A program made the position numbers and the translations under genes. The notes below the pieces were generated by a model that made no database searches, had not been told where the DNA came from, and worked only from the letters and a program-made list of their open reading frames with translations. This document shows, in pieces, positions 1,043 to 59,659 of a stretch of DNA of 64,000 nt; the stretch's first letter is position 1, and every line of letters starts with the position of its first letter. Origin of the DNA: a virus (lineage: Duplodnaviria > Caudoviricetes); the IMG/VR virus record IMGVR_UViG_3300046642_000603, positions 11,904 through 75,903 of that record; one strand, given 5' to 3'.

Positions 1043-1087
1043 ATGACCCGGCTTAATACCTGCCCCCGCCAGGGGGACCACCGATGA
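1043..1087 (+). CDS. 14-aa minigene MTRLNTCPRQGDHR
   Basis: AGGAGA RBS; stop overlaps the next start (ATGA); carries a CTTAATACC copy in the LNT frame. Confidence 0.35.
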   Translation: MTRLNTCPRQGDHR

Positions 1088-1380
1088 AGGCACCCGAGGG
1101 CTACGAGCACCTGGGTGAGGACTTCTGGGCCCGCGTCGAGCCGGACCCGGACACCGACTGCCTCATCTTCCAGTCCACCGCGACGCGGCCGTACTACCAG
1201 GGCAAGACTCTGCTGTCCTTCCTGACCGGCGGCGACGGCCGACAGAAGCACCGGGCGTGCAGGCGCCGGATGTGCGCCAACCCGGACCACATCCAGGACG
1301 GGCACTTCGACATGGGGACGCCGTACGCCCGGCGCCCCCGGTCGAGTTCGCAGTTCGCCCGTCAGTACTCGCAGTGCTGA
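1084..1380 (+). CDS. HNH-like small protein, possibly degenerate
   Basis: FWARVE..DCLIF and HRACRRRMCANPDHI resemble phage HNH nucleases. Confidence 0.55.
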   Translation: MKAPEGYEHLGEDFWARVEPDPDTDCLIFQSTATRPYYQGKTLLSFLTGGDGRQKHRACRRRMCANPDHIQDGHFDMGTPYARRPRSSSQFARQYSQC

Positions 1381-3014
1381 CCGTCGACCTCCACCCCTTC
1401 CAGGAGTCTGCGGCCGACAGGATGGTGGAGAGGGGCTGCCTTCTCGTTGCCTACGAGATGGGGCTGGGCAAGACCGTGCTGGCCCTGGCCGCCATCGAGG
1501 AGCTACTGGAGAAGGGGGAGGTCGAGACCGCCGTCATCGTGGTCCCGGCCAACCTCAAGTACCAGTGGGCCAAGTCCATCGCGAAACTCACCGACGTGCC
1601 GACCCGTGTGGTCACGGTGCGCGAGGACGGGCTGAAGCAGGAGATCACCGTCCCGACGGAGGAGTACTGCGTCCTGATCGACGGCGACGCGAAGAAGCGC
1701 GCCGGGCTGTACGCCAAGGTCAAGACGCTCCGGCCGGACTACGTGATCCTCGGCTACGAGAACGTCGTCAACGACTGGAACTTCGTCAGGAGGATCAAAC
1801 CGGAGTGCATCGTCCTCGACGAGTGCACCGCGATCAAGACGTTCCGGGCCCAGCGCACCAGGAAGATCAAGCGGCTCACCGCGCCGTACCGCTTCGGGAT
1901 GACCGGCACTCCGGTGGAGAACGGGAAGCCCGAGGAACTGTTCTCGATCATGCAGTGGGTCGACGACCAGGTCCTGGGCCGGTTCGACCTGTTCGACAAG
2001 ACGTACATCGTGCGCAACAAGTTCGGCGGGGTGCAGAACTACCGCAACCTGCCGGTGCTGCACGCCAAACTGGCCGAGGTGATGGTCCGCAAGACGCGGC
2101 TGGACGAGGACGTCCGGCCGTACCTGCCCGAGGTGCAGGAGTCGGTCATCCCGGTCGCCCTGGACGCCAAGACGAAGAAGGCATACCAGGCCATCGCGGG
2201 GGACCTGCTCGCCGAGCTGCGGGCGGCCGGGCCGACGATGGGTGACTTCGATCTGTTCGCGCACTACCACGGGGGAGAGGCGGGCAACGAGAACAGCCAG
2301 CAGGGCAAGATCATGTCTCGCATGCAGGCGCTGGACATGCTGCTGAACCACCCGGACCTGATCGTCATGTCCGGGCAGAGTTACGAGGAGAGCGAGGAGG
2401 CCCGGCAGCGGGGCGTGCAGAAGAAGGTGTGGCCGGGCTCGAAGTACGCGTACGAGGTGTGGCAGTCCGGCCTGCTCGATGACGTCACCACGGCCCCGAA
2501 ACTGGACGCCGTGGCGGCTGCGGTCGAGGACATCATGGCGGTCCCCGGAAACAAGATCATCGTCTTCTCGGTCAACCCCGACATGCTGGACCTGATCGGT
2601 GACCGGCTGCCGGAGAACTCGTTCGTCACGTACACCGGCCGGATGTCCTCGGCGGCCAAGGCATATGCCGCCCAGCGGTTCGAGACCGACGAACAGTGTC
2701 GGGTGTTCCTGTCCAGCCACGCGGGAGCGTTCGGCACCGACCTGTACATGGCCAACTACCTGATCAACTACGACCTCGCCTGGTCGGCCGGGAAGCAGGA
2801 CCAGATCAACGCCCGGCACAACCGAGCGAGCAGCCAGTTCAAGGACATCTACATCCTGAACGCCATCACGTCGGGCACCACCGAGCCACGCAAGCTGGCG
2901 ATGCTGGCGCACAAGCGCAGGGTGGGCAGCGCCATCACAGACGGGCGCGGAGCCGACGAGAAGGGCCGGATCGAGAACGACGTCCAGACCCTTACGCAGT
3001 GCCTGGAGGCGTAA
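1374..3014 (+). CDS. SNF2/Rad54-family DNA helicase
   Basis: YEMGLGKT Walker A; VLDE; MTGTPVEN; C-terminal helicase motifs (LINYDL.W, QINARHNR). Confidence 0.9.
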   Translation: MLTVDLHPFQESAADRMVERGCLLVAYEMGLGKTVLALAAIEELLEKGEVETAVIVVPANLKYQWAKSIAKLTDVPTRVVTVREDGLKQEITVPTEEYCVLIDGDAKKRAGLYAKVKTLRPDYVILGYENVVNDWNFVRRIKPECIVLDECTAIKTFRAQRTRKIKRLTAPYRFGMTGTPVENGKPEELFSIMQWVDDQVLGRFDLFDKTYIVRNKFGGVQNYRNLPVLHAKLAEVMVRKTRLDEDVRPYLPEVQESVIPVALDAKTKKAYQAIAGDLLAELRAAGPTMGDFDLFAHYHGGEAGNENSQQGKIMSRMQALDMLLNHPDLIVMSGQSYEESEEARQRGVQKKVWPGSKYAYEVWQSGLLDDVTTAPKLDAVAAAVEDIMAVPGNKIIVFSVNPDMLDLIGDRLPENSFVTYTGRMSSAAKAYAAQRFETDEQCRVFLSSHAGAFGTDLYMANYLINYDLAWSAGKQDQINARHNRASSQFKDIYILNAITSGTTEPRKLAMLAHKRRVGSAITDGRGADEKGRIENDVQTLTQCLEA

Positions 3015-3241
3015 CTTCCAGGATCTCACGAGGCACGTCGAGTGGTTCTAAACCCGTAATCGCATGGCACCATCAGGGTATGCGAGAAGAACCACTCGAC
3101 GTGCTGCTCCGTGAGGGGCTTGACCACGTCATATGCCCTCCGGAGGAGCAGGAGGACTGGGATCTGACCCCCGTCCGCCTGGCGCTCCGTGGTGCCCCAG
3201 CCGACCGCTGGTGAAGTTGTAAACCGGATTCGGCGAATCCG

Positions 3242-3270
3242 TTGACAAGGGCATATGCGGAACGTAGAGT
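3242..3270 (+). promoter_or_regulatory. sigma70/HrdB-type promoter
   Basis: TTGACA-N17-TAGAGT upstream of gene 3323. Confidence 0.7.
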
Positions 3271-3322
3271 CGTCCTCACGAAGCGTTGATCGAACGAAGG
3301 ATCAAACCACGCAGGAGGACGC

Positions 3323-3688
3323 ATGACCACCATCGCGGAAGCCCTCGGCATCTCCTGGGGCAACGGTGCAACGGACGCCCCCGAGTACCGGCTGACCTAC
3401 CACGCACAGCAGCAGGCCGCAGCCAAGGGCTGGACCAGCGCGCAGGTGCTGGAGGCCGCGAACCGCCCGCAGCACACCTCCCCTTCCAGCCGGTTCCCCG
3501 GCCAGCAGCGCCACGTCCGAGGCGAGATAGTCGCCGTCGTCGACCCGGCCGACCACCGCGTCATCACCGTCTACCAGGACGTCCGTGAGACCGGTCTGCG
3601 CACCGACCAGACCGACCGCGACGCGAAGCGCTACGCCACCCGCCTGGGTCAGCAGGTCCCGGCCGAGGTCGACGAAGTTACGTACTGA
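3323..3688 (+). CDS. DUF4258-like protein
   Basis: YRLTYHAQQQ...AVVDPADHRVITVY pattern; AGGAGG RBS. Confidence 0.55.
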   Translation: MTTIAEALGISWGNGATDAPEYRLTYHAQQQAAAKGWTSAQVLEAANRPQHTSPSSRFPGQQRHVRGEIVAVVDPADHRVITVYQDVRETGLRTDQTDRDAKRYATRLGQQVPAEVDEVTY

Positions 3689-4276: not shown

Positions 4277-4747
4277 ATGAGCACCGTCGCAGACACCATC
4301 GACCAGTCCTTCGCCGAACTCGGTGAGCAGTTCTACCCCGGCTCGACGCGCCCCCTGGTACGTCACCGCAACCGCCTTAATACCGAGGCCGCCGCGTCGG
4401 CGGCCGAACCCGGAGCATGGGACGCCAAGCCCCGTAAGTACGTCGTGGCCGGAGTCGAGACGGAGTTCTTCACCGTCGGCGACCTCGCCAAGGCGCTGGG
4501 ACGGCAGCCCGTGACCATCCGGAAGTGGGAGCGCGAGGGAGTCATTCCCAAGAGCACCTACCAGTCCCCGGGCAAGGACGGAGACGTACGCGGCCGACGC
4601 CGCCTGTACATCCGCGAGCAGGTCGAGGGCATGGTCCGCATCGCGCACGAGGAAGGCGTCCTCGTGTCCCACCAGAAGCCCATCAAGGGCACCCGCTTCA
4701 CCGAGCGCGTCGTCGCCCTCTTCAAGGCCCTGGCGGGCGACGAGTGA
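4277..4747 (+). CDS. MerR-like HTH DNA-binding protein
   Basis: FTVGDLAKALGRQPVTIRKWEREGVIP ... RRLY. Confidence 0.8.
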   Translation: MSTVADTIDQSFAELGEQFYPGSTRPLVRHRNRLNTEAAASAAEPGAWDAKPRKYVVAGVETEFFTVGDLAKALGRQPVTIRKWEREGVIPKSTYQSPGKDGDVRGRRRLYIREQVEGMVRIAHEEGVLVSHQKPIKGTRFTERVVALFKALAGDE

Positions 4748-4980
4748 GGATCGTCAAGAGCCAGAAGCACCACGTGTCCATGGGGAACTTCGAGTGGGTG
4801 GAGTTCGGCTACGAGGTCGACATCACCACCGACGACTTCCCCAAGGCACGCACCCTCGACGACCTGGACAAGGTCGCCACCGACCAGATCACCAAGGCCC
4901 TCGCGGCCGACATCGAGGAAGCCCGTCTCAACACGGGCGAAGCATCCTCGTACATCCATCTCTACCAGCAGGAGAACTGA
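4744..4980 (+). CDS. hypothetical protein
   Basis: GTGA-coupled ORF with typical codon usage. Confidence 0.65.
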   Translation: MRIVKSQKHHVSMGNFEWVEFGYEVDITTDDFPKARTLDDLDKVATDQITKALAADIEEARLNTGEASSYIHLYQQEN

Positions 4981-5796
4981 ATGCCCCGCACCCTGACCCG
5001 CCGCCGCACCGCCCGCGACACCGAGGCGTACTCCCCGGCCGACGAGCCCGAGGACGAGCAGGGCTACGCGGAGGAAGAGGACGAGGCCCCGGCCCGTGGC
5101 TCCCGCCGAGGCTCGCGCCGCAGCCTTAATACCGAGGAGGCCGACACCTCCCGACGCTCCCGCCGCGCCCCCGCGCGTGACGAGGACGACGACGAGGACG
5201 ACGAGCCCACGCCGAAGGTCGGCGGCCGTGGCTGGGGATCGTACGAGAAGACCAAGCAGGCGTCCTCCGGCTTCCCCGACAACTTCAAGGCGTCCACCGA
5301 GTCCGTGATCGTGAAGTTCCTGGACGAGGAGCCGTTCCTGGTCTTCCTCCAGCACTGGATCGAGCGCTCCGGCAAGAAGTCATTCACCTGCCTGGAGAGC
5401 AAGTGCCCGCTGTGCGACGACGCGGGTGACAAGCCCAGCCAGCAGGTCTCCTTCAACGTCGTCGACTTCACCGACCCCGAGGACCCGCAGGTCAAGGTCT
5501 GGCAGGTCGGCCCGATGGTCGCGGACATCCTGAAGAACTACGCCAAGGACAAGAAGACGTCGCCGATCAACCGCGACGACCTCTACTTCTCCGTCCGCAA
5601 GGAGACCAAGAACAAGAAGACCAACTACTACATCACGCCGGTCAAGGAGCGTGACCTCCTCGACGACTGGGACATCGAGCCCCTGAGCGAGGACGACCTG
5701 GAGACGTTCGACGCCAAGGCGTACGACGAGGACATCCTCCAGGTCACCCGGCGCACGGAACTCAAGGTCATCGTCCGCGAGATCCTGAACGACTAG
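4981..5796 (+). CDS. ssDNA-binding protein (gp32-like)
   Basis: acidic N-terminus; VKFLD...HW...CLESKCPLC; located next to the DNA polymerase. Confidence 0.7.
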   Translation: MPRTLTRRRTARDTEAYSPADEPEDEQGYAEEEDEAPARGSRRGSRRSLNTEEADTSRRSRRAPARDEDDDEDDEPTPKVGGRGWGSYEKTKQASSGFPDNFKASTESVIVKFLDEEPFLVFLQHWIERSGKKSFTCLESKCPLCDDAGDKPSQQVSFNVVDFTDPEDPQVKVWQVGPMVADILKNYAKDKKTSPINRDDLYFSVRKETKNKKTNYYITPVKERDLLDDWDIEPLSEDDLETFDAKAYDEDILQVTRRTELKVIVREILND

Positions 5797-5875: not shown

Positions 5876-7855
5876 GTGAAGATCCGCAACTCCGTCATCC
5901 TCACCCCCGACCGACTTAATACCGTGGTCGAGCGCTTCATGGAGCGTCCGGCCTTCGCATTCGACATCGAGACCTTCGGCCCCAACCGAGGCGTCCCGAC
6001 GCAGAACGTCGCCAACTGGCTCTCCCTGGCCTCCGACGGCATGGCCTACGCCATCCCCTTCGGGCACCCCAACGGCGACGTCCTGATCAGCAAGGCCACC
6101 CGCAAGAAGAACCGGCTCACCAACAAGTTCGACGCCATCCCGGCCGTCTACGACGCCCCGCCGGAGCAGATGCTCCCGAGCGAGGTCTTCTCCATCCTCC
6201 GGCCGCTGTTCTTCGCCGAAGACAAGATCAAGATCGCGCATAACGCCACGTTCGACCTGATCTCCACGGCGAAGTACTGGGGCGAGATCTGCCCGCCGGA
6301 GTACAGCGACACCATCGTCCTTCAGTGGCTCCTCGACGAGAACATGAAGCAAAAGGGCCTGAAGGAGTTGATCAAGCGCTACTACAAGGTCGACTACGAC
6401 ACCGAGAACGTCGGCAAGTGCGTCGAGGCCCACCCCTTCTCGAAGGTCGCCCACTACGCGTACATGGACTCCAAGTACACGTGGCTGCTCTGGAAGCGCT
6501 ACCAGAACCAGATCAAGGAGCAGAACCTCACCCACGTCCGGCGCCTGGAGGAAGACGTCCTGGGGGTGCTGCTCGACATGGGCATCACCGGAGCACCGGT
6601 CGACGAAGCCGCGATGCGTGAGCTGGTACAGGACATGTCCGCCCGGCTCGTCGACATCGAGGCCGACATCTACCGGGCCGCAGGCAAGCAGTTCAACCTG
6701 AACGCCCCGGCGCAGAAGGCCGAGGTGCTGTACGCCCCCAAGAGCGACGGCGGCCAGGGCCTCAAGCCGATGAAGCCCACCGACGGCGGCAAGAAGAAGC
6801 GCGACGCGGGCCAGACGCTGGAGTGGAAGGACTTCAGCACCGACTCCGACAGCCTGGAGAAGCACCCCAACAACCCGGTCGTCAAGAAGATGCTGGAGTA
6901 CGCGGAAGTCAGCAAACTGCTCGACTACCCCATCGCGTACCTCGGTGTCGAGGACGACCCGAAGAAGCCGTGCCGGATCTTCAACGGCAGGATCCACGCC
7001 GACTTCGTCCAGTACGGGACGGTGACCGGCCGGTTCTCCTGCCGCGAACCCAACCTCCAGAACATCCCCCGGCCCGACACCGACCTCGGCAAGCGGATCC
7101 GTGGACTGTTCGTCGCACCGCCCGGCTACAAGCTGGTCGTCGCGGACTACGGGCAGATCGAACTCGTCGTGCTCGCGCACTTCATCGGCCGTGGCGACCT
7201 CTACAAGGGGTTCCACAACGGCGTCGACCCGCACTCGGCGACGGCTGCCGCGCTGATGGGTGTGGACCCGCAGGAGTTCATGCGGCGGGTCAAGGAAGGC
7301 GACCGCACCTGCATCGACTTCCGCCAGGTCGCCAAGGGCATCAACTTCGCCGTCGTGTACGGCGCGGGCCCGGACAAGGTCGCCTCGATGGCAGGCATCT
7401 CCGTCAAGGACGCCAAGCGGTTCATGGAGATGCACCAGAAGATGTTCCCGGAGATCTACCGCTTCAAGGAAGAAGTCATCCGAGTGTGCCGGTCGCGTCG
7501 GCCCGCACACATCCGCACCCTGCTCGGCCGCAAGCGGCGCCTGCCGCTCATCCTCAGCCAGAACAACGGCCTGCGGATGGGAGCCGAGCGCCAGGCGGTG
7601 AACTCCCTCATCCAGGGATCCGCCGCCGACCTGATCAAACTGGCCATGATCCGGCTGAACAGCGCACTGCCGGACGAAATGCGCCTGATCCTCTCCGTGC
7701 ACGACGAACTCGTGACGCTCGCGCCGGAGGACCGGGCCGAGGAATGCGCCGACCTGGTTCGGGAAGCCATGCTCGGCGAAGGAATCCAGAAACTCCTGCG
7801 CGTCCCACTCTCGTCGGACGTGAAGATCGTGGACCGCTGGTCGGAGGCAAAGTAA
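5876..7855 (+). CDS. DNA polymerase family A with 3'-5' exonuclease
   Basis: FDIET exo I; AHNATFD; GTVTGRFSCREPNLQNIP; ADYGQIEL motif A; RQVAKGINFAVVYG motif B; VHDE motif C. Confidence 0.97.
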   Translation: MKIRNSVILTPDRLNTVVERFMERPAFAFDIETFGPNRGVPTQNVANWLSLASDGMAYAIPFGHPNGDVLISKATRKKNRLTNKFDAIPAVYDAPPEQMLPSEVFSILRPLFFAEDKIKIAHNATFDLISTAKYWGEICPPEYSDTIVLQWLLDENMKQKGLKELIKRYYKVDYDTENVGKCVEAHPFSKVAHYAYMDSKYTWLLWKRYQNQIKEQNLTHVRRLEEDVLGVLLDMGITGAPVDEAAMRELVQDMSARLVDIEADIYRAAGKQFNLNAPAQKAEVLYAPKSDGGQGLKPMKPTDGGKKKRDAGQTLEWKDFSTDSDSLEKHPNNPVVKKMLEYAEVSKLLDYPIAYLGVEDDPKKPCRIFNGRIHADFVQYGTVTGRFSCREPNLQNIPRPDTDLGKRIRGLFVAPPGYKLVVADYGQIELVVLAHFIGRGDLYKGFHNGVDPHSATAAALMGVDPQEFMRRVKEGDRTCIDFRQVAKGINFAVVYGAGPDKVASMAGISVKDAKRFMEMHQKMFPEIYRFKEEVIRVCRSRRPAHIRTLLGRKRRLPLILSQNNGLRMGAERQAVNSLIQGSAADLIKLAMIRLNSALPDEMRLILSVHDELVTLAPEDRAEECADLVREAMLGEGIQKLLRVPLSSDVKIVDRWSEAK

Positions 7856-8323
7856 ATGGGCATCTTCAGCCGCAAGAACGACGACGACATACCCGACATC
7901 CTTAATACCGAGGAGGACGACCTCCAGGTCGACCTCTACACCCCGCAGATGCTCACCAAGCGGCTGGCCTGGGACATCGTCCCGTGCAGCGAGGTCGAGG
8001 CACTGCTCCCGCTCATGGGACTCAGCCCCGACAGTGCGGAAGTATCCGAAATGGAGCACGAGGCCAGCCACGACCGGATAGAACAACTCACGCCGCTGAA
8101 GGAAATGCTAGCGCTGCTCATCCCGCTAGTTTCCGGCATTACTGCCTCGGCTATGCTGGTTAACTCCGGAAATTCCGTGGACGAGGAAACCGCCGCAGTT
8201 CTCCAGCGGCATCATTCCGTCGTCGTCCGCGCCGGAGTGGTGGCGGTCCTCGCCAATCTCCTCGACATGGGAATCATCACGTATTCGGATGGAGTGCAGT
8301 TCGGTGACCAACTTCTGGGCTAA
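7856..8323 (+). CDS. hypothetical protein
   Basis: ORF immediately after the polymerase stop. Confidence 0.7.
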   Translation: MGIFSRKNDDDIPDILNTEEDDLQVDLYTPQMLTKRLAWDIVPCSEVEALLPLMGLSPDSAEVSEMEHEASHDRIEQLTPLKEMLALLIPLVSGITASAMLVNSGNSVDEETAAVLQRHHSVVVRAGVVAVLANLLDMGIITYSDGVQFGDQLLG

Positions 8324-8796: not shown

Positions 8797-10746
8797 GTGA
8801 CCTCCCTGCTCACCCCCTCCGGCGACCTCTCCGATCCCTACCGCTCCTTCATCGCGAAATCGCGATACAGCCGCTGGATCGACGACGAGAACCGGCGCGA
8901 GACCTGGTCCGAGACCGTCGCCCGCTACGTGACGTTCATGCTCGGCCAGTTGAAGGACAAGCACGACTACACCCCCGACCGTGCCGTGGTCGACGAGATC
9001 CACGCGGCCATCCTCAACCACGAGGTCATGCCGTCCATGCGTGCGGTCATGACGGCCGGTCCCGCCCTGGACCGCTCGAACATCGCCGGGTTCAATTGCA
9101 GTTACTTGCCGCTGAAGGACGCCCGCGCTCTGGACGAGCTGCTGTACGTCCTGATGAACGGAACCGGCGTCGGCTACTCGGTCGAGCGGAAGTACACCGA
9201 CCAACTCCCGGCCGTCCCCGAGACCATCACCTTCAACGATGCCGTCTACATCCCCGTCGCCGACTCCAAGGAGGGCTGGGGCCTGGCCTTCCGTGCACTG
9301 CTCACCTCCCTGTGGAACGGCGAGTACTGCCACTGGGACCTGTCCGAGGTCCGTCCGGCTGGCGCCCGTCTTAATACCTTCGGAGGGCGAGCCTCCGGTC
9401 CGGGTCCGCTGGAAGAACTGTTCGCCTTCACGGTCGAGAAGTTCAAGCAGGCCGCCGGTCGCAAGTTCCGGCCGATCGAGGTCCACGACATCGCCTGCAA
9501 GATCGCATCCGTCGTGGTCGTCGGTGGTGTACGGCGCTCCGCGATGATCTCCCTGTCCGACCTGGACGACCGCGAGATGGCCGAGGCGAAGAGCGGGGAG
9601 TGGTGGGTCGAGCACCCCTACCGCGCCCTGTCGAACAACTCGGCTGTCTACACCGACGGCATGCGCTACGAGGAGTTCAACCAGGAGTGGGACTTCCTCG
9701 TCGCGTCCGGCTCCGGTGAGCGCGGCATCTTCCACCGTGGCGCAGCGCAGCGGCAGGCAGCGAAGTTCGGCAAGCGGGAGGCCGACACGGACTACGGGAC
9801 CAACCCCTGTAGCGAGATCATTCTGCGGCCGTTCTCCTTCTGCAACCTCTCCGAGGTCGTGGTCCGGGAGACCGACACCCCCCAGGACCTGACCCGCAAG
9901 GTGCGCCTGGCGGCCGTCCTCGGCACCTGGCAGTCCACGCTGACGGACTACCCGTACCTGCGCGAGGAGTGGAAGAAGAACGCGGAGGAGGAGCGGCTGC
10001 TGGGTGTCTCCCTCACGGGGGTCTACAGCAACCGCTGGACCAACGGCACGATCAACCTCAGCGCCACCGAGGTGCTGCTGGAGGGCCTGCGCGGGGAGGT
10101 CGTCGATGCCAACGCTGCGGAGGCCGACCGCATCGGTATCCCGCGCTCGGCTGCGACCACCTGCAACAAGCCCAGCGGCACCGTGTCCCAGTTGGTCGAC
10201 TGTGAGTCCGGCCTGCACCAGAAGCACGCGAAGTTCTACAAGCGCCGGGTGCGGGTGGACAAGAAGGACCCGATCGCGTTCGTGCTCAGTGACGCGGGCC
10301 TGCCGAAGGAGGAGGACTCCTACAACTCCTCCGCGTGGGTGTTCACCTTCCCGCAGAAGGCTGGCGCCACGGCCCTCGTGCGGGACGACGTGAGTGCGAT
10401 CGAGCACCTGGAACTGTGGCTGGCGTTCCAGCGGCACTGGTGCGAGCACAAGCCGTCCGTGACCATCAGCGTCCGCGAGCACGAGTGGGAGCAGGTCGGC
10501 GAGTGGGTGTGGGAGCACCTGGACGAGATCTCCGGCGTCTCCTTCCTGCCTTTCAGCGAGCACACGTACGTCCAGGCGCCGTACGAGGAGATCACGCAGG
10601 AGGAGTACGAGGCGCTGGCGGCCAAGGAGTACCGGGTCGAGTGGACGGACCTCGCGTTCTACGAGACCTACGACCAGACCACGGGGTCGCAGGAACTGGC
10701 CTGCGTCGCGGGTGCGTGTGAGGTCGTCGACCTCGTGACCACCTGA
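8797..10746 (+). CDS. nrdJ: class II (adenosylcobalamin-dependent) ribonucleotide reductase
   Basis: MPSMRA; FNCSY; GGVRRSA; TNPCSEI; KPSGTVSQL; C-terminal ACVAGACE. Confidence 0.93.
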   Translation: MTSLLTPSGDLSDPYRSFIAKSRYSRWIDDENRRETWSETVARYVTFMLGQLKDKHDYTPDRAVVDEIHAAILNHEVMPSMRAVMTAGPALDRSNIAGFNCSYLPLKDARALDELLYVLMNGTGVGYSVERKYTDQLPAVPETITFNDAVYIPVADSKEGWGLAFRALLTSLWNGEYCHWDLSEVRPAGARLNTFGGRASGPGPLEELFAFTVEKFKQAAGRKFRPIEVHDIACKIASVVVVGGVRRSAMISLSDLDDREMAEAKSGEWWVEHPYRALSNNSAVYTDGMRYEEFNQEWDFLVASGSGERGIFHRGAAQRQAAKFGKREADTDYGTNPCSEIILRPFSFCNLSEVVVRETDTPQDLTRKVRLAAVLGTWQSTLTDYPYLREEWKKNAEEERLLGVSLTGVYSNRWTNGTINLSATEVLLEGLRGEVVDANAAEADRIGIPRSAATTCNKPSGTVSQLVDCESGLHQKHAKFYKRRVRVDKKDPIAFVLSDAGLPKEEDSYNSSAWVFTFPQKAGATALVRDDVSAIEHLELWLAFQRHWCEHKPSVTISVREHEWEQVGEWVWEHLDEISGVSFLPFSEHTYVQAPYEEITQEEYEALAAKEYRVEWTDLAFYETYDQTTGSQELACVAGACEVVDLVTT

Positions 10747-50395: not shown

Positions 50396-50397
50396 AC

Positions 50398-50628
50398 ATG
50401 ACCGCGAAGCAGGACGACGACCGCCCCCTCATGGGACTCGGTCATCTGGTGATCCCCAACGTCAGCGCCGCGAAGGACTGGCTGGAGCGCCAGGGCAAGA
50501 AGCGCGAGGAAGCCGTCGAGATCGTCGTCCTTGAGACCAAGAAGTGGTTCGCCATCGACCACCTCCCCGACGAGTTCTACGAGACCTTCGCCAAGCGCGT
50601 GGTCGCCGCACTCGACCAGCGTCTCTGA
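50398..50628 (+). CDS. hypothetical protein
   Basis: ORF. Confidence 0.6.
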   Translation: MTAKQDDDRPLMGLGHLVIPNVSAAKDWLERQGKKREEAVEIVVLETKKWFAIDHLPDEFYETFAKRVVAALDQRL

Positions 50629-50650
50629 CCCACCACACCCCGGAGGACAC

Positions 50651-51757: not shown

Positions 51758-52062
51758 TGGAGCCCGACGACCTCGGCGGCTGGTTCGAGGCGGCGGAACT
51801 GGTGGGCGGGGAACGACTCCTCGCCCACCCCCGCAAGGACTGCATCGGCCGCCACTGCTGCGTACACAATCCCTCCGATCACCACATGGCCGACTGGCCC
51901 CAGCACTTCCGCATGGACCGCGCCCTGATGGAGCGGATGTGCTCCCACGGCGTCGGTCACCCCGACCCGGACGACCTCGCCTACAAGCGGATGTTGCAGG
52001 GCGAGGACTACAACCCCTACGAGGGCCTGCACGGCTGCGACGGGTGCTGCCGATGCCCGTGA
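51757..52062 (+). CDS. hypothetical Cys/His-rich protein
   Basis: CCVHNPSDHHM; CSHGVGHPDPD; HGCDGCC. Confidence 0.7.
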   Translation: MEPDDLGGWFEAAELVGGERLLAHPRKDCIGRHCCVHNPSDHHMADWPQHFRMDRALMERMCSHGVGHPDPDDLAYKRMLQGEDYNPYEGLHGCDGCCRCP

Positions 52063-52103
52063 AGTGCCAGTGCTGCGGACCGAAGAAGACGAAGGAGAAG
52101 CCT

Positions 52104-52973
52104 GTGACGACGCTGACCATGACCAAGGGCCTGCCGGGCTCCGGCAAGACGACGTGGGCCCGGGAGCAGGTCCTCAAGGCCATCCCCGGCTCCGTCGTGA
52201 TCGTGTGCAAGGACGACCTGCGGGCGATGCTGCACGCCGACCGCTGGCACGGCAAGAACGAGCGGCAGGTCGTCAAGGCCCGCGACGCGCTCGTGGAGAT
52301 GTTCCTGCTCCAGGGCGTCAGCGTGATCGTCGCCGACACCAATCTCAACCCGTTCCACGAGGAGCGCCTGGAGCGGCTGGCGGAAAGCCGGGGAGCGAGG
52401 TTCTTCGTCAAGGACTTCACCGACGTGACGCTTAATACCTGCGTCCGCCGCGACCTGAAGCGGGAGAAGAGCGTCGGCGAGAAGGTCATCAGGGACATGT
52501 ACGAGAAGTACCTGGCCCCGAAGCCTGCCGACCCTCCGGAGTACATAGAGGGCCGCCCGCACGCGGTCCTGGTGGACCTGGACGGCACGCTGGCCCTGAT
52601 GGCCGACCGCAGCCCGTTCGACTGGGACCGGGTGGACGAGGACGCGGCGCACCAGGACGTCGTCGACCTGGTGAACACCCTGCGGGATGCGGGCGCCGAG
52701 ATCATCTTCGTCTCCGGCCGCGACGCGAGGGCCTACAAGCGGACTCGGTCCTGGCTGGTGCAGCACGTTGGCGACTGGACGCCCCTGGCGCCGCTGCTGA
52801 TGCGCGCCGAGTTCGACATGCGCAAGGACTCGATCGTCAAGGAGGAGATCTACCGGCAGGAGATCCTGGGCCGCTACAACGTGTGGATGGTCCTGGACGA
52901 CCGTGACCAGGTGGTCGAGATGTGGCGCAATCTCGGCTTGCGCGTCCTCCAAGTGGCCCCCGGCGCCTTCTAG
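52104..52973 (+). CDS. polynucleotide kinase / 3'-phosphatase (T4 PseT-like)
   Basis: GLPGSGKTTW; DDLR; VADTNL; VDLDGTLA HAD motif; SGRD; LDDRDQVV. Confidence 0.93.
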   Translation: MTTLTMTKGLPGSGKTTWAREQVLKAIPGSVVIVCKDDLRAMLHADRWHGKNERQVVKARDALVEMFLLQGVSVIVADTNLNPFHEERLERLAESRGARFFVKDFTDVTLNTCVRRDLKREKSVGEKVIRDMYEKYLAPKPADPPEYIEGRPHAVLVDLDGTLALMADRSPFDWDRVDEDAAHQDVVDLVNTLRDAGAEIIFVSGRDARAYKRTRSWLVQHVGDWTPLAPLLMRAEFDMRKDSIVKEEIYRQEILGRYNVWMVLDDRDQVVEMWRNLGLRVLQVAPGAF

Positions 52974-54422: not shown

Positions 54423-54797
54423 ATGGGTGAGCGCGTCAGCGTTGACAAGTTCTGCGATTTCAAGGTGAAGCACGGCCGCAAGACCGAGACATGCGGCCAG
54501 GACGTACCCGGTAACGAGGCCACGGCCATCACCATCGGTACGACGAGGTACTTCATGGATCTATGCCTGGACCATCAGCAGCTCATGGTCGGTGCCCTGG
54601 AGCCCTTCACCTCCGTCGCCCACAACACCGAGAAGCGCGTCGGCACGCAGGTGCTGAAGGCCATCAAGGGCCGGGGCGGCCAGACCTTCACCGCTGCGGA
54701 CGTGCGCCTGTGGCTGAAGGAGCAGGGCCGGGAGATCGCCCACACCGGGCGGATCCCCACGGACCTCATCCGCGAGTTTGAGGCCGCGCACAAGTAG
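54423..54797 (+). CDS. lsr2: Lsr2-family nucleoid-associated protein
   Basis: YFMDLC; VRLWLKEQG.EI..TGRIP..LIREFEAAH. Confidence 0.85.
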   Translation: MGERVSVDKFCDFKVKHGRKTETCGQDVPGNEATAITIGTTRYFMDLCLDHQQLMVGALEPFTSVAHNTEKRVGTQVLKAIKGRGGQTFTAADVRLWLKEQGREIAHTGRIPTDLIREFEAAHK

Positions 54798-55209: not shown

Positions 55210-55283
55210 CTGGACGTAGCGCAGCCCGGTAGCGCGCCTGCTTTGGATGCAGGGGGTCGCAGGTTCGAATCCTGCCGTCCAGA
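55210..55283 (+). tRNA. tRNA-Pro(TGG)
   Basis: cloverleaf; CCTGC-TTTGGAT-GCAGG anticodon arm; GGTTCGAATCC. Confidence 0.93.
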
Positions 55284-55289
55284 CTTCAC

Positions 55290-55362
55290 GGCCCTTTGGC
55301 AGAGACAGTTAATGCGCCCGCCTGAAAAGCGGGAGATCTTGGTGCGATTCCAAGGGGGGCCA
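55290..55362 (+). tRNA. tRNA-Phe(GAA), atypical T-loop
   Basis: CCCGC-CTGAAAA-GCGGG; T-arm CTTGG-TGCGATT-CCAAG. Confidence 0.8.
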
Positions 55363-55373
55363 CTTTGTCCAGA

Positions 55374-55520
55374 CGCCGAGCCCTGTTCCTGGACAAAAAC
55401 TGCAATCAACCCTGAACAGGGGCGGGAGACCGAAACGCAGTACTGGGGCGAATCCGCAGAACCACGTGTGGTAGGGAACAGCACTTATCCCGAGCCCGTC
55501 ACCTAATTTCGTAGGCGTGC
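55374..55520 (+). ncRNA. ydaO/yuaA-class (cyclic di-AMP) riboswitch
   Basis: CGCCGAG.CCTG...GGGGCGAATC...GTAGGG...CCCGAGCCCGTCACCTAA..CGTAGGCG directly upstream of a cell-wall hydrolase gene. Confidence 0.8.
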
Positions 55521-55530
55521 GGAGTGCATC

Positions 55531-56163
55531 ATGAATAAGAGGATCGCTGGAATCGCACTTGCGGGCGCACTGGCCATTACGCCGATAGCGGTTACCGCCG
55601 CAGAGGCCGCAGCCAGTTACGTGACCGTCAAAAGCGGAGACACACTGAGTGGGATCGCATCAGCCCACAAGACGACGTATCAGCACCTCGCGTCCATCAA
55701 CCACATATCCAACCCCAACCGGATTTACCCCGGCGAGAGAATCCTTCTGGCCGCATCGTCCACGCCCGCACCGGCCAAGCCCGCATCCACGACCGGCAGC
55801 TCGACCTCGTCGGGCACGAAGATCGTCAACCAGGCCGCCAAGTACATCGGTACGCGGTACGTCTGGGGCGGCACCTCGCCGTCGGCTGGCTTCGACTGCT
55901 CCGGCCTGACCTACTACACCTTCAAGAAGCTGGGGAAGAGCATTCCCCGCGTCGCGAGCGACCAGCACCGCGCGGCGGCGAAGGTCTCGAAGCCCCAGAA
56001 GGGCGACCTGGTCTTCGTGCACGACTCCAGCGGTCACGTCTACCACGTGGCCATCTACGTCAATTCCACGACGTGGCTGGAGGCGGAGCGCCCGGGTAAG
56101 GGCGTGAACTACTACAAGCCGTGGTCGAAGTCGGTTTACTACGGCCGCTACACGGTGAAGTAG
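55531..56163 (+). CDS. secreted LysM + NlpC/P60 peptidoglycan endopeptidase
   Basis: signal peptide; VKSGDTLSGIA...NPNRIYPGE LysM; YVWGG...FDCSGL...HVAIY. Confidence 0.95.
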   Translation: MNKRIAGIALAGALAITPIAVTAAEAAASYVTVKSGDTLSGIASAHKTTYQHLASINHISNPNRIYPGERILLAASSTPAPAKPASTTGSSTSSGTKIVNQAAKYIGTRYVWGGTSPSAGFDCSGLTYYTFKKLGKSIPRVASDQHRAAAKVSKPQKGDLVFVHDSSGHVYHVAIYVNSTTWLEAERPGKGVNYYKPWSKSVYYGRYTVK

Positions 56164-56180
56164 GATTCACCAGTAAGAAA

Positions 56181-56210
56181 GGCCGGAGGGAACCTATCTT
56201 CCCTCCGGCC
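56181..56210 (+). terminator. hairpin after the hydrolase gene
   Basis: GGCCGGAGGGAA..TTCCCTCCGGCC. Confidence 0.6.
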
Positions 56211-56213
56211 CAC

Positions 56214-56296
56214 GGCCGAGTGGTGAAATGGCAGCCACGCCGTCCTCAAAAGACGGTGCCTGAAAGGGCGTGCGGGTTCGAGTCCCGCCTTGGCTA
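56214..56296 (+). tRNA. tRNA-Leu(CAA)
   Basis: CCGTC-CTCAAAA-GACGG; long variable arm; GGTTCGAGTCC. Confidence 0.9.
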
Positions 56297-56301
56297 CGCA
56301 A

Positions 56302-56374
56302 TCCCTCATAGCTCAATTGGCAGAGCAGCGCACTGTTAATGCGCGGGTTCCTGGTTCGAGTCCAGGTGAGGGAG
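56302..56374 (+). tRNA. tRNA-Asn(GTT)
   Basis: GCGCA-CTGTTAA-TGCGC; GGTTCGAGTCC. Confidence 0.93.
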
Positions 56375-56415
56375 CCCTGTAAGCCCCGGTAACCTAATTG
56401 GTTGCCGGGGCTCAG

Positions 56416-56898: not shown

Positions 56899-58140
56899 TT
56901 GAGCGCCCTTACCGAGTCCACTGACGTCGAGTGGGTCCGCGAGATCCTGATGGACCCCACCGTCGGCCACGAGGCCGCCGCTGCGGACCTCGTCTTCAAC
57001 GGCATCGAGACGTCCGAGACGGCCGTCCGGCGCTGGCGCAAGGCCAACGGCTACAAGCGCGCCATCCTCGTCGAGCCGGGCAAGGAACCGAAGCGTCTTA
57101 ATACCCTGCCCGAGGAGGGCACGGCCGAGGCAGTGGCCGAGAACGAGGAGGTGCTGCGGGACCGCATCGAGTCCCTGACCTCCGACAACCGCCGACTCTT
57201 CCAGCAGTTCACCAAGGCCAAGGCGCGCGGCGACGAGTACATCGAGGCCGTCTACAAGGCCGCCCGCGACGCCGCCCAGTTCGTCGGGGCGAGCCCGGTG
57301 ACCCCGCCGAAGGCCGACAAGCGCACCAAGCCGTCCGAGGTAGCCCTGTGGCACCTCACCGACTGGCAGGGCGGCAAGAAGACGATCACCTACGACCGCA
57401 CCATCATGCGGACCCGGGTGATGCGCTACGTCGAGAAGGCCACCGAGATCACCGAGATCCAGCGCGCAGACCACCCCGTCCGCAAGGCGGTCCTCCTCTT
57501 CACCGGAGACATGGTCGAAGGCGTGAGCATCTTCCCCGGCCAGGTCTGGGAGTTGGACGGCACGCTCTACGAGCAGATGTTCGACGTCTCCGACCTGATG
57601 ATGTGGACGATCAAGAAGGCCCTCCAGGTCTACGAGGAGGTCGAGGTCGTCGCCGAGTACGGCAACCACGGCCGCCTCGGCAAGAAGTCCGACGGCATCA
57701 AGGCGTCCGACAACGTCGACCGCATGGTCTACAACATCGTCCGCGAGCGTCTGGCCCACGAGGGACGGCTGACGAAGTTCCAGACCTCCGGGGACTGGTA
57801 CCAGAACTTCTCCATCGGCAACTACAAGGCCATGGCCATCCACGGCGACGAGATCAAGTCCTTCGGCGGCAACATCCCCGCCTACGGCATCCTCCGCAAG
57901 GCCAACCAGTGGGCGAGCGGGGTCCTGCCGACCTTCCGCGACCTGTACATCGGCCACTACCACCAGTCCATGCAGTTGCAGTTGGCCAACGGCGGCTCCG
58001 TCTACATGACCGGAAGCCCCGAATCGGACAACGTGTACGCCCACGAGTTCGTGGCCGCGACCGGTGACCCGAGCCAGCGCCTGCATTTCGTCCACCCCGA
58101 GAAGGGACGCGTCACCAGTGAGCACCGCATCTGGCTGTAA
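56899..58140 (+). CDS. calcineurin-like metallophosphoesterase
   Basis: LTDWQ; GDMVEG; GNHG; HGD; GHYH. Confidence 0.88.
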   Translation: MSALTESTDVEWVREILMDPTVGHEAAAADLVFNGIETSETAVRRWRKANGYKRAILVEPGKEPKRLNTLPEEGTAEAVAENEEVLRDRIESLTSDNRRLFQQFTKAKARGDEYIEAVYKAARDAAQFVGASPVTPPKADKRTKPSEVALWHLTDWQGGKKTITYDRTIMRTRVMRYVEKATEITEIQRADHPVRKAVLLFTGDMVEGVSIFPGQVWELDGTLYEQMFDVSDLMMWTIKKALQVYEEVEVVAEYGNHGRLGKKSDGIKASDNVDRMVYNIVRERLAHEGRLTKFQTSGDWYQNFSIGNYKAMAIHGDEIKSFGGNIPAYGILRKANQWASGVLPTFRDLYIGHYHQSMQLQLANGGSVYMTGSPESDNVYAHEFVAATGDPSQRLHFVHPEKGRVTSEHRIWL

Positions 58141-58168
58141 GCCGACCACCACGACCCTGGAGTACCCG

Positions 58169-58444
58169 TTGAGCATCGTCACCGAGATCACCTCCGACCA
58201 CGAGGCCGCGTACCACTACATCGTCGGCGACGACGAGGAGACGTACGTGTCCATCAAGGACGTCGTCGGAACCCTGCTGGAGTTCTCCGAGAAGTTGGAG
58301 GGCATGGGCGGCATCTACGAGCAGATCGGCGACGCCTTCAGCCAGGTCGCCGTCCAGATCGCCGAACCGTTCATGCAGGTCCCCACCGAGACCGCGACCA
58401 TCCTCAGCCTGCTTAATACCTCCCCCTCCGGGGGCGCTGAGTGA
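58169..58444 (+). CDS. hypothetical protein
   Basis: GGAG RBS; TTG start. Confidence 0.6.
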   Translation: MSIVTEITSDHEAAYHYIVGDDEETYVSIKDVVGTLLEFSEKLEGMGGIYEQIGDAFSQVAVQIAEPFMQVPTETATILSLLNTSPSGGAE

Positions 58445-58635
58445 AGACAGCCCGCGACAACGCGGTCTGGAAGGTGCGGGTCCTGCTGAAGGTCCCCTCG
58501 GGCTGGAAGCCCAAGACGTTCTTCTACTCCCGCCAGTTCCACGTAACGGACTGGCGGGACAAGGCCGAGCGGGCCCCGCACCTGTTCCAGATCGACTTCA
58601 TCGGCAAGTACAACCTGGAGGAAGACAGTGGCTGA
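58441..58635 (+). CDS. hypothetical protein
   Basis: coupled ORF. Confidence 0.55.
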   Translation: MKTARDNAVWKVRVLLKVPSGWKPKTFFYSRQFHVTDWRDKAERAPHLFQIDFIGKYNLEEDSG

Positions 58636-59122
58636 AGGAACCCCGCCCCCGGTCGGATCGATAGGCGTCACCGCGACCGGAGGGATCATCGGCTGGGGCA
58701 TCCGGCTGCTGACGTTCTCCCGCTACAACCACGCCTTCATCGTCGGCCCGGCCGGTCTCCTCGTCGAGGCCCAGCCGGGCGGCGCCCGCATCGGCCACAT
58801 CTCGATGTACCCGAAGGCGAAGTACAACACCCACACCGTCATCCCGGACGAGACCCGGGAGAAGATCTGGGAGACCGCCCTCGGCTTCGCCCAGGCCAAC
58901 GGAGGCAAGGGCATCGGCTACGGCTGGCTCGACGACATCGCACTCGGGCTCCGGTTCTTCGGCTTCTGGTCGGACTGGATCGCGGAGCGCATCGCACGCC
59001 AGGACCGGCTCCAGTGCGCCCAGTTGTGCGACCTCGCCTACAGCCGCAACGGCATCTACCTCTTCGACGACGGCCGCCTCCCGCTGGCGGTCGACCCGGG
59101 CGACATCGCCGACATCATCTGA
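58628..59122 (+). CDS. permuted papain-like (YiiX/YaeF) NlpC/P60-superfamily enzyme
   Basis: SRYNHAFIV...VEA..GG; G.GY; QCAQLCDLAY. Confidence 0.75.
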   Translation: MAEGTPPPVGSIGVTATGGIIGWGIRLLTFSRYNHAFIVGPAGLLVEAQPGGARIGHISMYPKAKYNTHTVIPDETREKIWETALGFAQANGGKGIGYGWLDDIALGLRFFGFWSDWIAERIARQDRLQCAQLCDLAYSRNGIYLFDDGRLPLAVDPGDIADII

Positions 59123-59155
59123 CCACCCCACCCCATCCGCGAGGAGCACCAGACA

Positions 59156-59659
59156 GTGACAGCGAAGACCTGGCTTAATACCCGCCCCCACCGGCCCATG
59201 GCGTCCCTGAGACAGTGGCACCAGGCAGTGGGGGAGAAGCGGTTCATCGAGCGCGAGGAGGCCGGACGGGACGACCTGATCGCCCTGCGGTCCACCCTCA
59301 TCGCCGAGGAGGTCCAGGAGGCCCTGGAGGCCCTTCTGAACTACCGCAAGGCCCAGATCATGGACGACCACTTCGAGGCCAACCAGGACATGCTCCTCAG
59401 CCGGAAGCACGTCGTCGAGGCGCCGCACTGGTACGAGGCCCTGGCCAAGGAACTCGCCGACGCCCTGTACGTCATCTACGGCACCGCCGACCTCCTGGAG
59501 ATCCCCCTGGAGCCCGTCTTCGCCGAGGTCCACCGCTCGAACATGAGCAAGGTCGGCCCCAACGGCCAGGTGATCCGCCGCGAGGACGGCAAGATCCTCA
59601 AGCCGGACACCTACCGCGAGGCCAACGTCCACGGCGCACTCACCGGAGAGTGGGTGTAG
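59156..59659 (+). CDS. MazG-like NTP pyrophosphohydrolase
   Basis: LIAEEVQE; KELADALYVIYG; EVHRSNMSK; REDGKILKP. Confidence 0.9.
   Translation: MTAKTWLNTRPHRPMASLRQWHQAVGEKRFIEREEAGRDDLIALRSTLIAEEVQEALEALLNYRKAQIMDDHFEANQDMLLSRKHVVEAPHWYEALAKELADALYVIYGTADLLEIPLEPVFAEVHRSNMSKVGPNGQVIRREDGKILKPDTYREANVHGALTGEWV

Follow-up and report, generated by a model that had tools for sequence, protein, structure and literature searches.

A nucleotide box read in a single frame and followed by a hairpin, repeated along one strand of an actinophage genome: a possible translation-coupled element of its mRNAs

The question raised by the viral DNA analysed here, a stretch of 64,000 bases (the window) corresponding to bases 11904–75903 of the IMG/VR virus record IMGVR_UViG_3300046642_000603, whose completeness is estimated at 77%, is why one and the same 9-mer, CTTAATACC, should recur throughout it, inside unrelated genes and always on one strand. 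A preliminary description had listed 24 exact copies, all on the + strand, with near variants at three more positions, and had put the chance expectation far below that number; all of this is borne out, the window containing 24 exact copies at the positions listed on the + strand and none on the − strand, with CTTAATATC at 25759, CTTAATATG at 28313 and CTTAATCTC at 63604, while dinucleotide shuffles of the window contain 0.05 copies on average and one at most, none of 100 shuffles reaching 24. In the full record (75,903 bases) the 9-mer occurs 26 times forward and never in reverse, and the shorter CTTAATA 31 times forward and never in reverse, five of the 31 being the variants CTTAATATC or CTTAATATG. 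The G+C content had been put at 68% and is measured at about 65%; nearly all genes lie on the + strand, as judged with our own crude codon-usage gene caller. The recurrence described as every 0.5–5 kb holds as a spacing of 0.4–5 kb (average ~2.7 kb), with the exception of a 17.5 kb gap between the copies at 29833 and 47356, and the copies are indeed often near protein termini, those within 60 nucleotides (nt) of starts numbering 12–14 against 4.5–6 expected (P ≤ 0.006) and those within 60 nt of stops 9–15 against 4.4–5.9. The answer that we favour, with a probability of about 0.4, is that the element acts at the RNA level as a translation-coupled cassette of the messenger RNA (mRNA), that is, as what we infer to be a programmed pause or a recoding-type checkpoint.

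That selection acts on the nucleotides themselves is best seen in related phages. A search of IMG/VR with the PolA protein of this phage returned 47 loci; among the 36 with a full PolA, taken together with the window, 19 rows carry CTTAATAY (the A-type box), 16 carry CTTCATAY (the C-type box) and two carry neither. CTTMATAYC, M being A or C, is found with and against the gene strand 39 and 1 times in the A-type genome G001 (105,651 bases), 37 and 0 times in the C-type genome G002, and 32 and 1 times in the C-type genome G003. When the orthology of every copy was followed by BLAST in four genomes (G000–G003), about 28 copy positions proved common to all of them, and at these base 4 is A in the two genomes of the A-type and C in the two of the C-type; the switch extends even to the variant, which is CTTAATATG in the A-type and CTTCATATG in the C-type. 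The peptide encoded at the shared positions changes with the type, from Leu-Asn-Thr to Leu-His-Thr, and it is therefore on the nucleotides that selection acts. The cis-acting sites supposed in the preliminary description are thus supported by sister phages carrying CTTCATAYN at the same positions, and on its open point, whether orthologues would keep the nucleotides or turn the sites over, these shared positions are kept with base 4 switched by clade.

Copies restricted to one lineage arise at places where suitable residues were already encoded: A-type-specific copies align to CTGAACACC-like C-type sequence and C-type-specific ones to CAGCACACC- or CTGCACACC-like A-type sequence, the new copies deriving from CTG-AAC-ACC-like or xxx-CAC-ACC-like codons. 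The proteomes bear the mark of this process, Leu-Asn followed by Thr, Ile or Met occurring 27 and 41 times in the A-type genomes versus 12 in G002, and the corresponding Leu-His tripeptides 3 and 3 times versus 37. Near-miss variants are at background level (5–6 per A-type genome, both strands counted), and mixed genomes are rare: in two loci (L034 and L035) a single A-type copy accompanies 14 and 11 C-type copies, respectively, and in a C-type prophage of Streptomyces a single A-type copy precedes a C-type one by 21 nt (G014:C18:136147 and 136168). A base-calling or modification artefact was rejected, given that both types occur in contigs sharing a metagenome number and that new copies agree with the Asn or His that is encoded. 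Of the A-type rows of the PolA tree, 17 fall into a single clade (support 99) and two further ones, L021 and L022, group with C-type rows (support 85); the starred branches of the tree are compatible with a single origin. More distant relatives lack the motif: G004 has no CTTMATAYC and G005 one chance copy, equal to the reversed-pattern control, and no comparable motif was found in G004, G005, L046, L052, L050 and L054 (PolA identity 48–68%), TCTCGTTC of L046 amounting to no more than a usual string of codons. By PolA, the closest isolates are BRock-like Streptomyces phages (~52% identity), and a megablast search against GenBank phages gave matches to ThyX only.

The second property of the box is its frame. 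Every copy in the window lies in an open reading frame (ORF) and is read CTT-AAT-ACC, as had been noted: 21 of the 24 are inside called genes, all 21 in this phase, and the three at 1052, 29833 and 47356 have the same phase in ORFs missed by the gene caller. In-gene copies are in phase 0 in 36 cases out of 36 in both G001 and G002, and the C-type genomes have 32 and 34 copies of CTTCATA in phase 0, with none in either of the alternatives. A cruder test, based on the phase of G+C at third codon positions, puts 286 of 320 distinct + strand copies of all loci in phase 0, and is unreliable at gene borders, where most inspected of the 34 exceptions lie; many of the 34 have an in-frame ATG 2–4 codons upstream. 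The box is written in unusual codons, AAU and CAU being rare (about 1–3 per 1000 outside it), and the ordinary spelling CTC-AAC-ACG, which the preliminary description had reported near 4927, is confirmed in frame at 4927–4935. Its explanation of the fixed frame, avoidance of TAA and TTA, is right for this phage, where the other phases of the A-type box would give TAA, or TTA, which is used in frame 0–1 times per genome; it does not account for the C-type box, which keeps to phase 0 although neither alternative phase has a stop. The codons concerned have similar frequencies per C-type genome (ATA 29–37, TCA 20–31, CAT outside the box 23–33). Sites of the form xxC-TTC-ATC-Y, one synonymous change away from the motif, number 3–4 per C-type genome and are all unconverted, and the gains found in G002 or G003 alone, at least six in number, all have phase 0. 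The peptide encoded (Leu-His-Thr versus Phe-Ile or Ser-Tyr) may bias the phase of new copies, and, because a functional copy also seems to need the hairpin described below, new copies would be confined to tolerant stretches. In a test for bldA-type control, TTA was found in the +1 phase of the box and not in frame.

Frame and orientation are kept even where no gene had been called. The copy on the opposite strand, of which G001, G002 and G003 have one each, adjoins the integrase region and lies in a minus-strand small ORF, in phase 0 and 7–12 codons past the ATG. All 12 gap copies of G000–G003 (2, 3, 3 and 4 per genome) are inside mini-ORFs of 9–28 codons, nine of them with a Shine-Dalgarno match, which start 2–16 codons before the box and stop within 12 nt of the start of the next gene; about half of all such mini-ORFs in these genomes hold the box. 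Three more copies outside called genes are found in two longer uncalled ORFs and in a leader ORF of six codons in G001, corresponding in the window to the end of the ORF of 200 amino acids (aa) at 46765–47367. One leader of 15 codons has its length and phase kept in all four genomes while its peptide varies, and the box located at codon 3 of RecA in the A-type genomes belongs, in the C-type G002 and G003, to a separate 10-codon ORF before RecA. Fusion of the leader ORFs to the next gene by frameshifting is not supported, a TAA being present in the −1 phase of the A-type box.

The third property is a hairpin. Counted from the start of the box, its stem usually begins at 10–12 nt: pairing opens at +10 to +12 in 123 of 155 copies, as compared with 222 of 400 controls (400 random in-frame gene positions per genome), and the mode of this opening position, +12, accounts for 58 of 155 copies against 51 of 400 controls. 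The 40 nt from +10 (+10 to +49) have a mean folding energy of −13.9 to −15.3 kcal/mol, versus −10.1 to −10.4 for the controls (Mann-Whitney p < 0.0001 in each of the four genomes), whereas the flanks (40 nt upstream, and +49 to +89) do not differ from controls. The sequence of the stem differs from site to site, yet is kept among orthologues, third-codon-position columns varying in 22% of 79 paired and 73% of 131 unpaired cases. At the PolA site, for which 15 distinct orthologues are available, 95.2% of the cells are paired and three pairs have changed on both sides, while slid controls pair at 28–56% and none of 500 shuffles attains either the pairing or the covariation seen; in most rows U·G is the pair at two positions, and in lineage L032 the stem has been rebuilt from a different sequence at the same place. 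The structure favours the + strand by ~0.9 kcal/mol relative to background (p = 0.005). Where a copy has been gained in a single lineage, its fold exceeds that of the orthologous sequence without a site in stability by 2.2 kcal/mol on average (mean −13.2 versus −11.0; p = 0.008), and in some cases by far more (−21.0 versus −9.4 to −11.2; −21.6 versus −10.3 to −12.2). Among 24 sequencing runs, all of them assembled contigs, two of RNA and two of DNA were compared with the sequence and yielded neither starts nor ends nor joints of use; copy 12504 is spanned by one RNA contig. The frame rule, the orientation that follows the gene, the translated gap copies and a stem that includes G·U pairs and keeps its distance from the box argue together for translated mRNA as the level of action, and are hard to reconcile with a site in double-stranded DNA.

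A special copy, at 47356 and thus at the end of the 17.5 kb copy-free block, adds a further element. Here the box ends the 200-aa ORF, a TAG following directly, and after 5–8 variable nt there is an anti-motif, GGTATT, complementary to box bases 4–9. The C-type form is GGTATG, and, with one copy per genome, the anti-motif matches the motif type in 10 of 10 genomes: GGTATT goes with the A-type in four of four (G000, G001, G012 and G013) and GGTATG with the C-type in six of six (G002, G003, G006, G007, G009 and the prophage). In the alignment (six usable rows) the helix between box and anti-motif is 100% paired, with A-U versus C-G covariation, and the loop between them varies in length. A long hairpin with four compensatory pairs begins 1–2 nt after the anti-motif, followed by a conserved TGTCCCAMC and by a helix over the Shine-Dalgarno sequence of the next gene; Rfam has no match for the locus at E ≤ 1. 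The block itself gave Pfam hits for one of 13 proteins scanned (DUF2786/DUF7168), and of its 30 called genes two have weak tblastn matches in G004 and one in G005.

Table 1. Positions, in the window, of the box copies with their hairpins and of associated features
Feature	Position	Strand	Remarks
Mini-ORF	1043–1087	+	14 codons, MTRLNTCPRQGDHR; GGAGA before ATG; TGA overlaps ATG of next gene (ATGA)
Motif; hairpin	1052–1060; 1063–1076	+	Within mini-ORF 1043–1087
Motif and hairpin (stem from +12)	4376–4405	+	MerR-like helix-turn-helix (HTH) gene, codon 34
Motif and hairpin	5125–5152	+	271-aa gene, codon 49
Motif and 11-bp hairpin	5915–5953	+	PolA, codon 14
Motif and hairpin	7901–7937	+	155-aa gene, codon 16
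Motif and hairpin	9370–9398	+	Class II ribonucleotide reductase (RNR), codon 196
Motif and hairpin	10884–10925	+	RecA, codon 3
Motif and hairpin	12060–12088	+	6 codons before RecA stop
Motif and hairpin	12504–12530	+	114-aa gene, 17 codons before stop
Motif and hairpin	15310–15336	+	RNA ligase (PF09414) gene
Motif and hairpin	17244–17284	+	12 codons before dNMP kinase stop
Motif and structure	20207–20255	+	584-aa gene, codon 244
Motif and hairpin	23102–23143	+	GH25 lysin
Motif and weak downstream structure (−10.5 kcal/mol)	24173–24209	+	130-aa gene, codon 18
Lineage-specific motif copy, structure late at +18	24773–24824	+	
Variant CTTAATATC and 11-bp hairpin from +12	25759–25798	+	
Motif and hairpin	27792–27818	+	263-aa gene
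Variant CTTAATATG and hairpin	28313–28354	+	TGT/DpdA-like gene, codon 94; CTTCATATG in C-type relatives
Motif and hairpin	29833–29883	+	Uncalled ORF 29650–30114; last copy before copy-free block
Copy-free block	29884–47355	+	~35 small ORFs, no motif copy
Special copy	47356–47444	+	Motif 47356–47364, then TAG stop; anti-motif GGTATT 47371–47376
Structures of special copy	47379–47411; 47424–47440; 47442	+	Long hairpin; hairpin over Shine-Dalgarno; ATG
Motif and weak hairpin	48559–48582	+	154-aa gene, codon 3
Motif and 11-bp hairpin	50972–51011	+	Rnl1-type RNA ligase
Motif and structure	52431–52482	+	PNKP
Phage tRNA-Asn(GTT)	56302–56376	+	Reads middle codon AAU; a link to the motif is presumed
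Motif and hairpin	57097–57121	+	Exonuclease-like 413-aa gene
Motif and hairpin	58412–58434	+	108-aa gene, 10 codons before stop
Motif and structure	59174–59225	+	MazG-like gene, codon 7

Under the translation-coupled reading, the unit would be an in-frame box CUU-MAU-AYN (M being A here and C in the sister clade), usually followed 0–2 nt later by a G+C-rich stem-loop. A ribosome meeting the stem at its entry channel would have CUU in the P site and AAU or CAU in the A site, with 5 nt left to the stem; such is the layout of programmed pause or recoding sites, judged by the usual spacer of frameshift sites (5–9 nt) and the position of the ribosomal helicase. Pausing is likelier than frameshifting, because there is neither a canonical slippery site nor a visible trans-frame design. 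About 40 such checkpoints would stand in structural, replication, lysis and RNA-repair genes, and none in the block of small accessory genes, so as to bring most lytic ORFs under one post-transcriptional control. The clade-wide switch calls for a type-specific reader: the preference for Asn or His codons could be set by a clade-specific tRNA-Asn or tRNA-His of the phage, by a factor recognizing the A-site codon, or by the anti-motif RNA, and the TGT-like enzyme of the phage might modify a reader tRNA. A bolder version, which we consider doubtful, makes of this a genome-wide translational checkpoint regulon, in which the ~40 boxes, most with a stem-loop, would stall or divert ribosomes unless the clade-specific reader (a tRNA-Asn or tRNA-His of the phage, its G34 perhaps exchanged by the TGT-like enzyme, or the anti-motif RNA) is present, the His to Asn codon switch defining a new specificity group; by analogy, such a regulon would be the translational counterpart of repressor–stoperator heteroimmunity.

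Several observations weigh against this reading. AAU and CAU share their tRNAs with the common codons AAC and CAC, and are no evident hungry codons; re-pairing of N-CUU-MAU in the −1 frame is impossible, no canonical −1 slippery heptamer is present, and a +1 shift would put the rare AUA in place as the next codon; and the ORFs in the shifted frames (−1 and +1) after the copies, though somewhat longer than in controls, have no pattern or clear design. The frame rule may partly reflect the peptides tolerated in linkers and termini. As regards the hairpin, the site is more stable than the non-site orthologue in only 26 of 42 comparisons, and a strong hairpin is often missing at young A-type copies made by synonymous changes. 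As regards the reader, the C-type genome G003 has no tRNA-His while both types carry tRNA-Asn, the TGT-like gene is present also in the motif-less G004 and G005, a purely ribosomal reader alone would leave the near-pure single-type genomes unexplained, and the pairing of the anti-motif suits a reader acting by RNA pairing as well or better.

The candidate readers deserve a closer description. With ARAGORN, all five motif genomes searched encode tRNA-Pro, tRNA-Phe, tRNA-Leu(CAA) and tRNA-Asn(GTT). A tRNA-His(GTG) of 86 nt is found in five of six C-type genomes, the exception being G003, and in neither of the two A-type genomes whose sequence extends over the tRNA region; given its absence from G003, the idea that the C-type box must have it as a partner was rejected. 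This tRNA-His (in G002 at L063:8973–9058, on the minus strand of the locus) directly follows tRNA-Asn and has a long variable arm, a class II shape and a G at −1 opposite C73; it is present also in G006, G007, G009 and the Streptomyces prophage (G014:C18, ~172.6 kb). Transfer RNAs with a GUN anticodon, those for Asn and His among them, are substrates of TGT enzymes, and a 512-aa TGT/DpdA-like protein is encoded at 28034–29572. It matches PHROG 887, "queuine tRNA-ribosyltransferase" (E = 2e-78), has no Pfam hit and nothing significant in a profile search of the PDB, and its DSG and Cys-rich motifs are conserved; AlphaFold models it as a TIM barrel (mean pLDDT 70), for which the top Foldseek matches include, among other barrels, archaeosine and bacterial TGTs (E ~4e-4). 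No preQ0 synthesis genes were seen among the scanned neighbours of the gene. A DUF4258-like gene (3323–3688; sub-threshold E = 7e-4) is not supported as a reader; it is present also in the motif-less L046.

As to the phage itself, its gene set is that of a large actinophage: replication and nucleotide genes (DnaG-type primase, SNF2 helicase, PolA, class II RNR, RecA, WhiB, ThyX and dNMP kinase), lysis genes (GH25 lysin and an NlpC/P60 protein), an RNA-repair module (RlaP nucleotidyltransferase, Rnl1-type ligase and PNKP), and, among regulators and others, an Lsr2-like protein, MazG and a minus-strand XRE/DUF5753 regulator. The genes named in the preliminary description (PolA, class II RNR, RecA twice, GH25 lysin, two RNA ligases and PNKP) are all upheld. 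The RNA-repair module (49017–52973) is near four tRNA genes (55210–56376), as expected for a defence against anticodon nucleases. The Lsr2-like DNA-binding protein (54423–54797) and the minus-strand XRE HTH/DUF5753 regulator (59714–60753), which has a small partner ORF upstream, are possible immunity or silencing genes. Within the tRNA cluster a c-di-AMP riboswitch (ydaO/yuaA, RF00379, 57 bits) lies at 55391–55531, upstream of a LysM-NlpC/P60 hydrolase gene (55621–56163). The uncalled ORF around copy 29833 (29650–30114) has a lower G+C content and repeated GGAWTYCC-like words, and may represent a gene for a repetitive peptide or else an iteron-like region. Another recurrent motif, (G)AAGACGTAAT, is intergenic and occurs on both strands, once as an inverted pair (3720, 23545, 30186–30200, 46737–46751, 49910, 56720 and 56822, and record position 9093); one copy falls within the spacer of a promoter-like site, TTGACA-N17-TATAGC, at 56812, and the motif looks like a conventional operator. 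The box itself was rejected as a promoter: copies are at codons 3–7 of their own genes, their flanks are not conserved, and conventional promoter candidates exist separately, TTGACN-N14-20-TANNNT occurring 11 times on the + strand and never on the − strand.

A temperate lifestyle is indicated by relatives. G001 encodes a serine recombinase and a tyrosine integrase, and Streptomyces sp. NPDC002088 carries a C-type relative as a prophage, at ~78–183 kb of a 203 kb contig (G014:C18, L087–L093), with a G+C content of 0.65 as against 0.71 in the flanks. The prophage relatives (G014:C18; L056:1–3519) have the same two enzymes, and the junction adjoins the single reverse-strand motif copy. In this Streptomyces genome (10.7 Mb) 39 copies are found in the ~105 kb prophage and 33 in the other ~10.6 Mb, 19 forward and 14 reverse; the motif is therefore not a host feature. 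A host polar motif of the Chi or KOPS kind was rejected for the same chromosome, which shows neither enrichment nor strand skew, and with it falls the Chi-like recombination site that had been among the candidates of the preliminary description.

How do other explanations fare? RNA-level explanations, taken together and with the favoured one included, appear quite probable. One of the others has the boxes as targets of a trans-acting RNA or RNA-binding factor, forming a post-transcriptional regulon or an immunity system: an RNA from the 3' end of the copy-free operon, with the seed GGUAUU (A-type) or GGUAUG (C-type) before a terminator-like hairpin, would pair with box bases 4–9 in ~40 mRNAs, blocking initiation at early-codon or coupled-leader boxes or triggering decay, and a one-base change of the seed would create a new specificity. 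The covariation of the anti-motif in all ten genomes, with its variable loops and fully paired helix, argues for it, as do the position of the anti-motif 1–2 nt before a long hairpin with compensatory pairs, the near purity of the genomes for one type, the Y at box base 8, which would pair with G as G-C or G·U, and the enrichment near starts, boxes at codons 3–7 and in leader ORFs being well placed for such control; a temperate phage would suit an immunity role, and the c4 antisense immunity of P1 and P7 and repression by small RNAs (sRNAs) within the first five codons provide models. It leaves unexplained the phase-0 rule, the invariant CUU, which is outside the 6-nt pairing, and the fixed +12 stem; box base 10 shows no complementarity, the other GGTATK hexamers of the + strand look random, and the anti-motif may be merely the cis partner of a hairpin. 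We hold it to be rather unlikely. Cleavage by a sequence-specific endoribonuclease, encoded by the phage or guided, would dissect long operon transcripts near gene borders, a cut in the single-stranded A/U-rich box leaving a stabilising stem-loop a few nt from the 5' end of the downstream RNA, much as in the cases of T4 RegB, the RNase III sites of T7 and MazF enzymes, whose sites can be as long as 7 nt. The hairpin 0–2 nt after the box, the copies near ORF ends and starts, the + strand polarity and the G·U pairs are consistent with it, and the one base-paired copy would be protected; a cut at codons 3–7, however, would remove the start codon of the very gene that hosts the box, the frame rule is again left without explanation, and Pfam, PHROGs and NCBIfam provide no nuclease candidate beyond the sub-threshold DUF4258 hit; this alternative is quite improbable.

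At the DNA level the sites could be programmed nicks (as in T5, tf or phiKMV-like phages), priming signals of the lagging-strand template, or stoperator-like repressor sites. The nick sites of phage tf (PMC3517423) are the strongest DNA precedent, and stoperators are numerous, asymmetric, mostly in one orientation and co-vary with their repressor (PMC6550527); a temperate phage encoding HTH regulators and a DnaG-type primase, with copies ~2.7 kb apart on average, would suit such sites. For a DNA site, intergenic DNA would be the cheapest place, yet every gap copy is in a phase-0 mini-ORF, mostly with a Shine-Dalgarno sequence; moreover, the reverse copy follows the orientation and frame of its gene, the stems contain G·U pairs and favour the + strand, the variable loops of the anti-motif helix are unsuited to a dimeric DNA binder, and a separate operator-like intergenic motif, GAAGACGTAAT, is already present. 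DNA-level explanations, nick sites and a base-modification target included, appear improbable, and of the original proposal the cis-acting site system stands, while the DNA-level candidates listed for it are not favoured in view of frame, orientation, G·U hairpin, mini-ORFs and anti-motif.

If the translation-coupled reading is correct, most lytic genes of these phages would be under one post-transcriptional switch, written inside coding sequence and read in frame; to our knowledge, no such in-frame regulon is known in either phages or bacteria. It would also offer a testable model of cis sites and a reader that change specificity together, with two pure types, rare mixed genomes and a matching anti-motif, and may tie to gene control the tRNAs, TGT/DpdA-like enzymes and RNA-repair modules that are common and poorly explained cargo of phages. 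Should the sites instead be nicked, localized nicking would extend to temperate actinophages, with an unusually clear record of co-evolution. A composite element of this kind is invisible to ordinary annotation, and would indicate that synonymous sites in phage genes can hold a dense regulatory code. The preliminary description knew of no role for the motif, and indeed no description of it, nor of any in-frame box-plus-hairpin element repeated across a phage genome, was found in open-access papers and bioRxiv main texts.

Comparison with known systems places the element near several of them. Programmed frameshift and pause cassettes consist of a shift site, a spacer and a stem-loop, CUU shift sites being those of the prfB and Ty1 type. 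The present box resembles them in being a short in-frame sequence with a presumed P-site CUU and a stem conserved by structure and not by sequence, a generic stable stem-loop coming 5 nt after the presumed A-site codon (3–5 nt after MAU in 123 of 155 copies); it differs from them in having no X XXY YYZ heptamer and an A-site codon that is neither a stop nor a rare-tRNA codon, and, where frameshift cassettes come in one or two copies, in its ~40 copies per genome and its clade-wide one-base switch; as for a conserved trans-frame ORF, none was found, the shifted frames being somewhat longer than in controls. The comparison with prfB and Ty1 +1 sites is likewise divided, CUU being invariant here, and AAU and CAU being rare codons whose tRNAs are shared with AAC and CAC. 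With the c4 system of P1 and P7 and with seed-based sRNA regulons the element has in common a short complement that co-varies with its targets and translational coupling through leader ORFs; unlike these, it has ~40 targets with 6 nt of complementarity, and a frame and a CUU which such pairing does not explain.

Rare-codon control in Streptomyces comprises bldA and UUA codons, the adpA leader ORF with its in-frame UUA, and UUA-triggered bypassing in the terminase gene of phage Hau3 (PMC10732093). The parallels are rare codons used as signals at high G+C content, short leader ORFs ending beside the main start, RNA structure around the codon and a setting of Streptomyces and a temperate phage; by analogy, leader ORFs with rare codons and codon-triggered recoding in Streptomyces and its temperate phages are precedents for the favoured reading (PMC10732093). 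The difference is that there is no in-frame TTA here, and that a fixed box of 8–9 nt has its own hairpin, ~40 copies and two mutually exclusive types. Phage tf carries 14 nicks in a 9-bp consensus, TACTRTGMC, on one strand, and its relatives have TACTATGAC at similar positions, a one-base switch read by the authors as co-evolution of nickase and site (PMC3517423). Shared features are a 9-bp asymmetric consensus, many copies on one strand, positions shared by relatives and a one-base switch. The tf sites, however, do not change strand between convergent transcription units; here the odd copy of each complete genome follows its gene, and a frame rule, a hairpin and leader ORFs, all three present here, are not described in the sections of the tf account considered (PMC3517423). 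Finally, in cluster A mycobacteriophages a repressor binds the stoperators, DNA sites of 13 bp (PMC6550527); they share with the present element a temperate actinophage, dozens of asymmetric sites co-oriented with transcription (39/1, 37/0 and 32/1 here) and a motif that differs among relatives, and they differ from it by the signatures of RNA found here, namely the frame, the hairpin with G·U pairs and the anti-motif helix. Each of the families tested has defining features that the element lacks.

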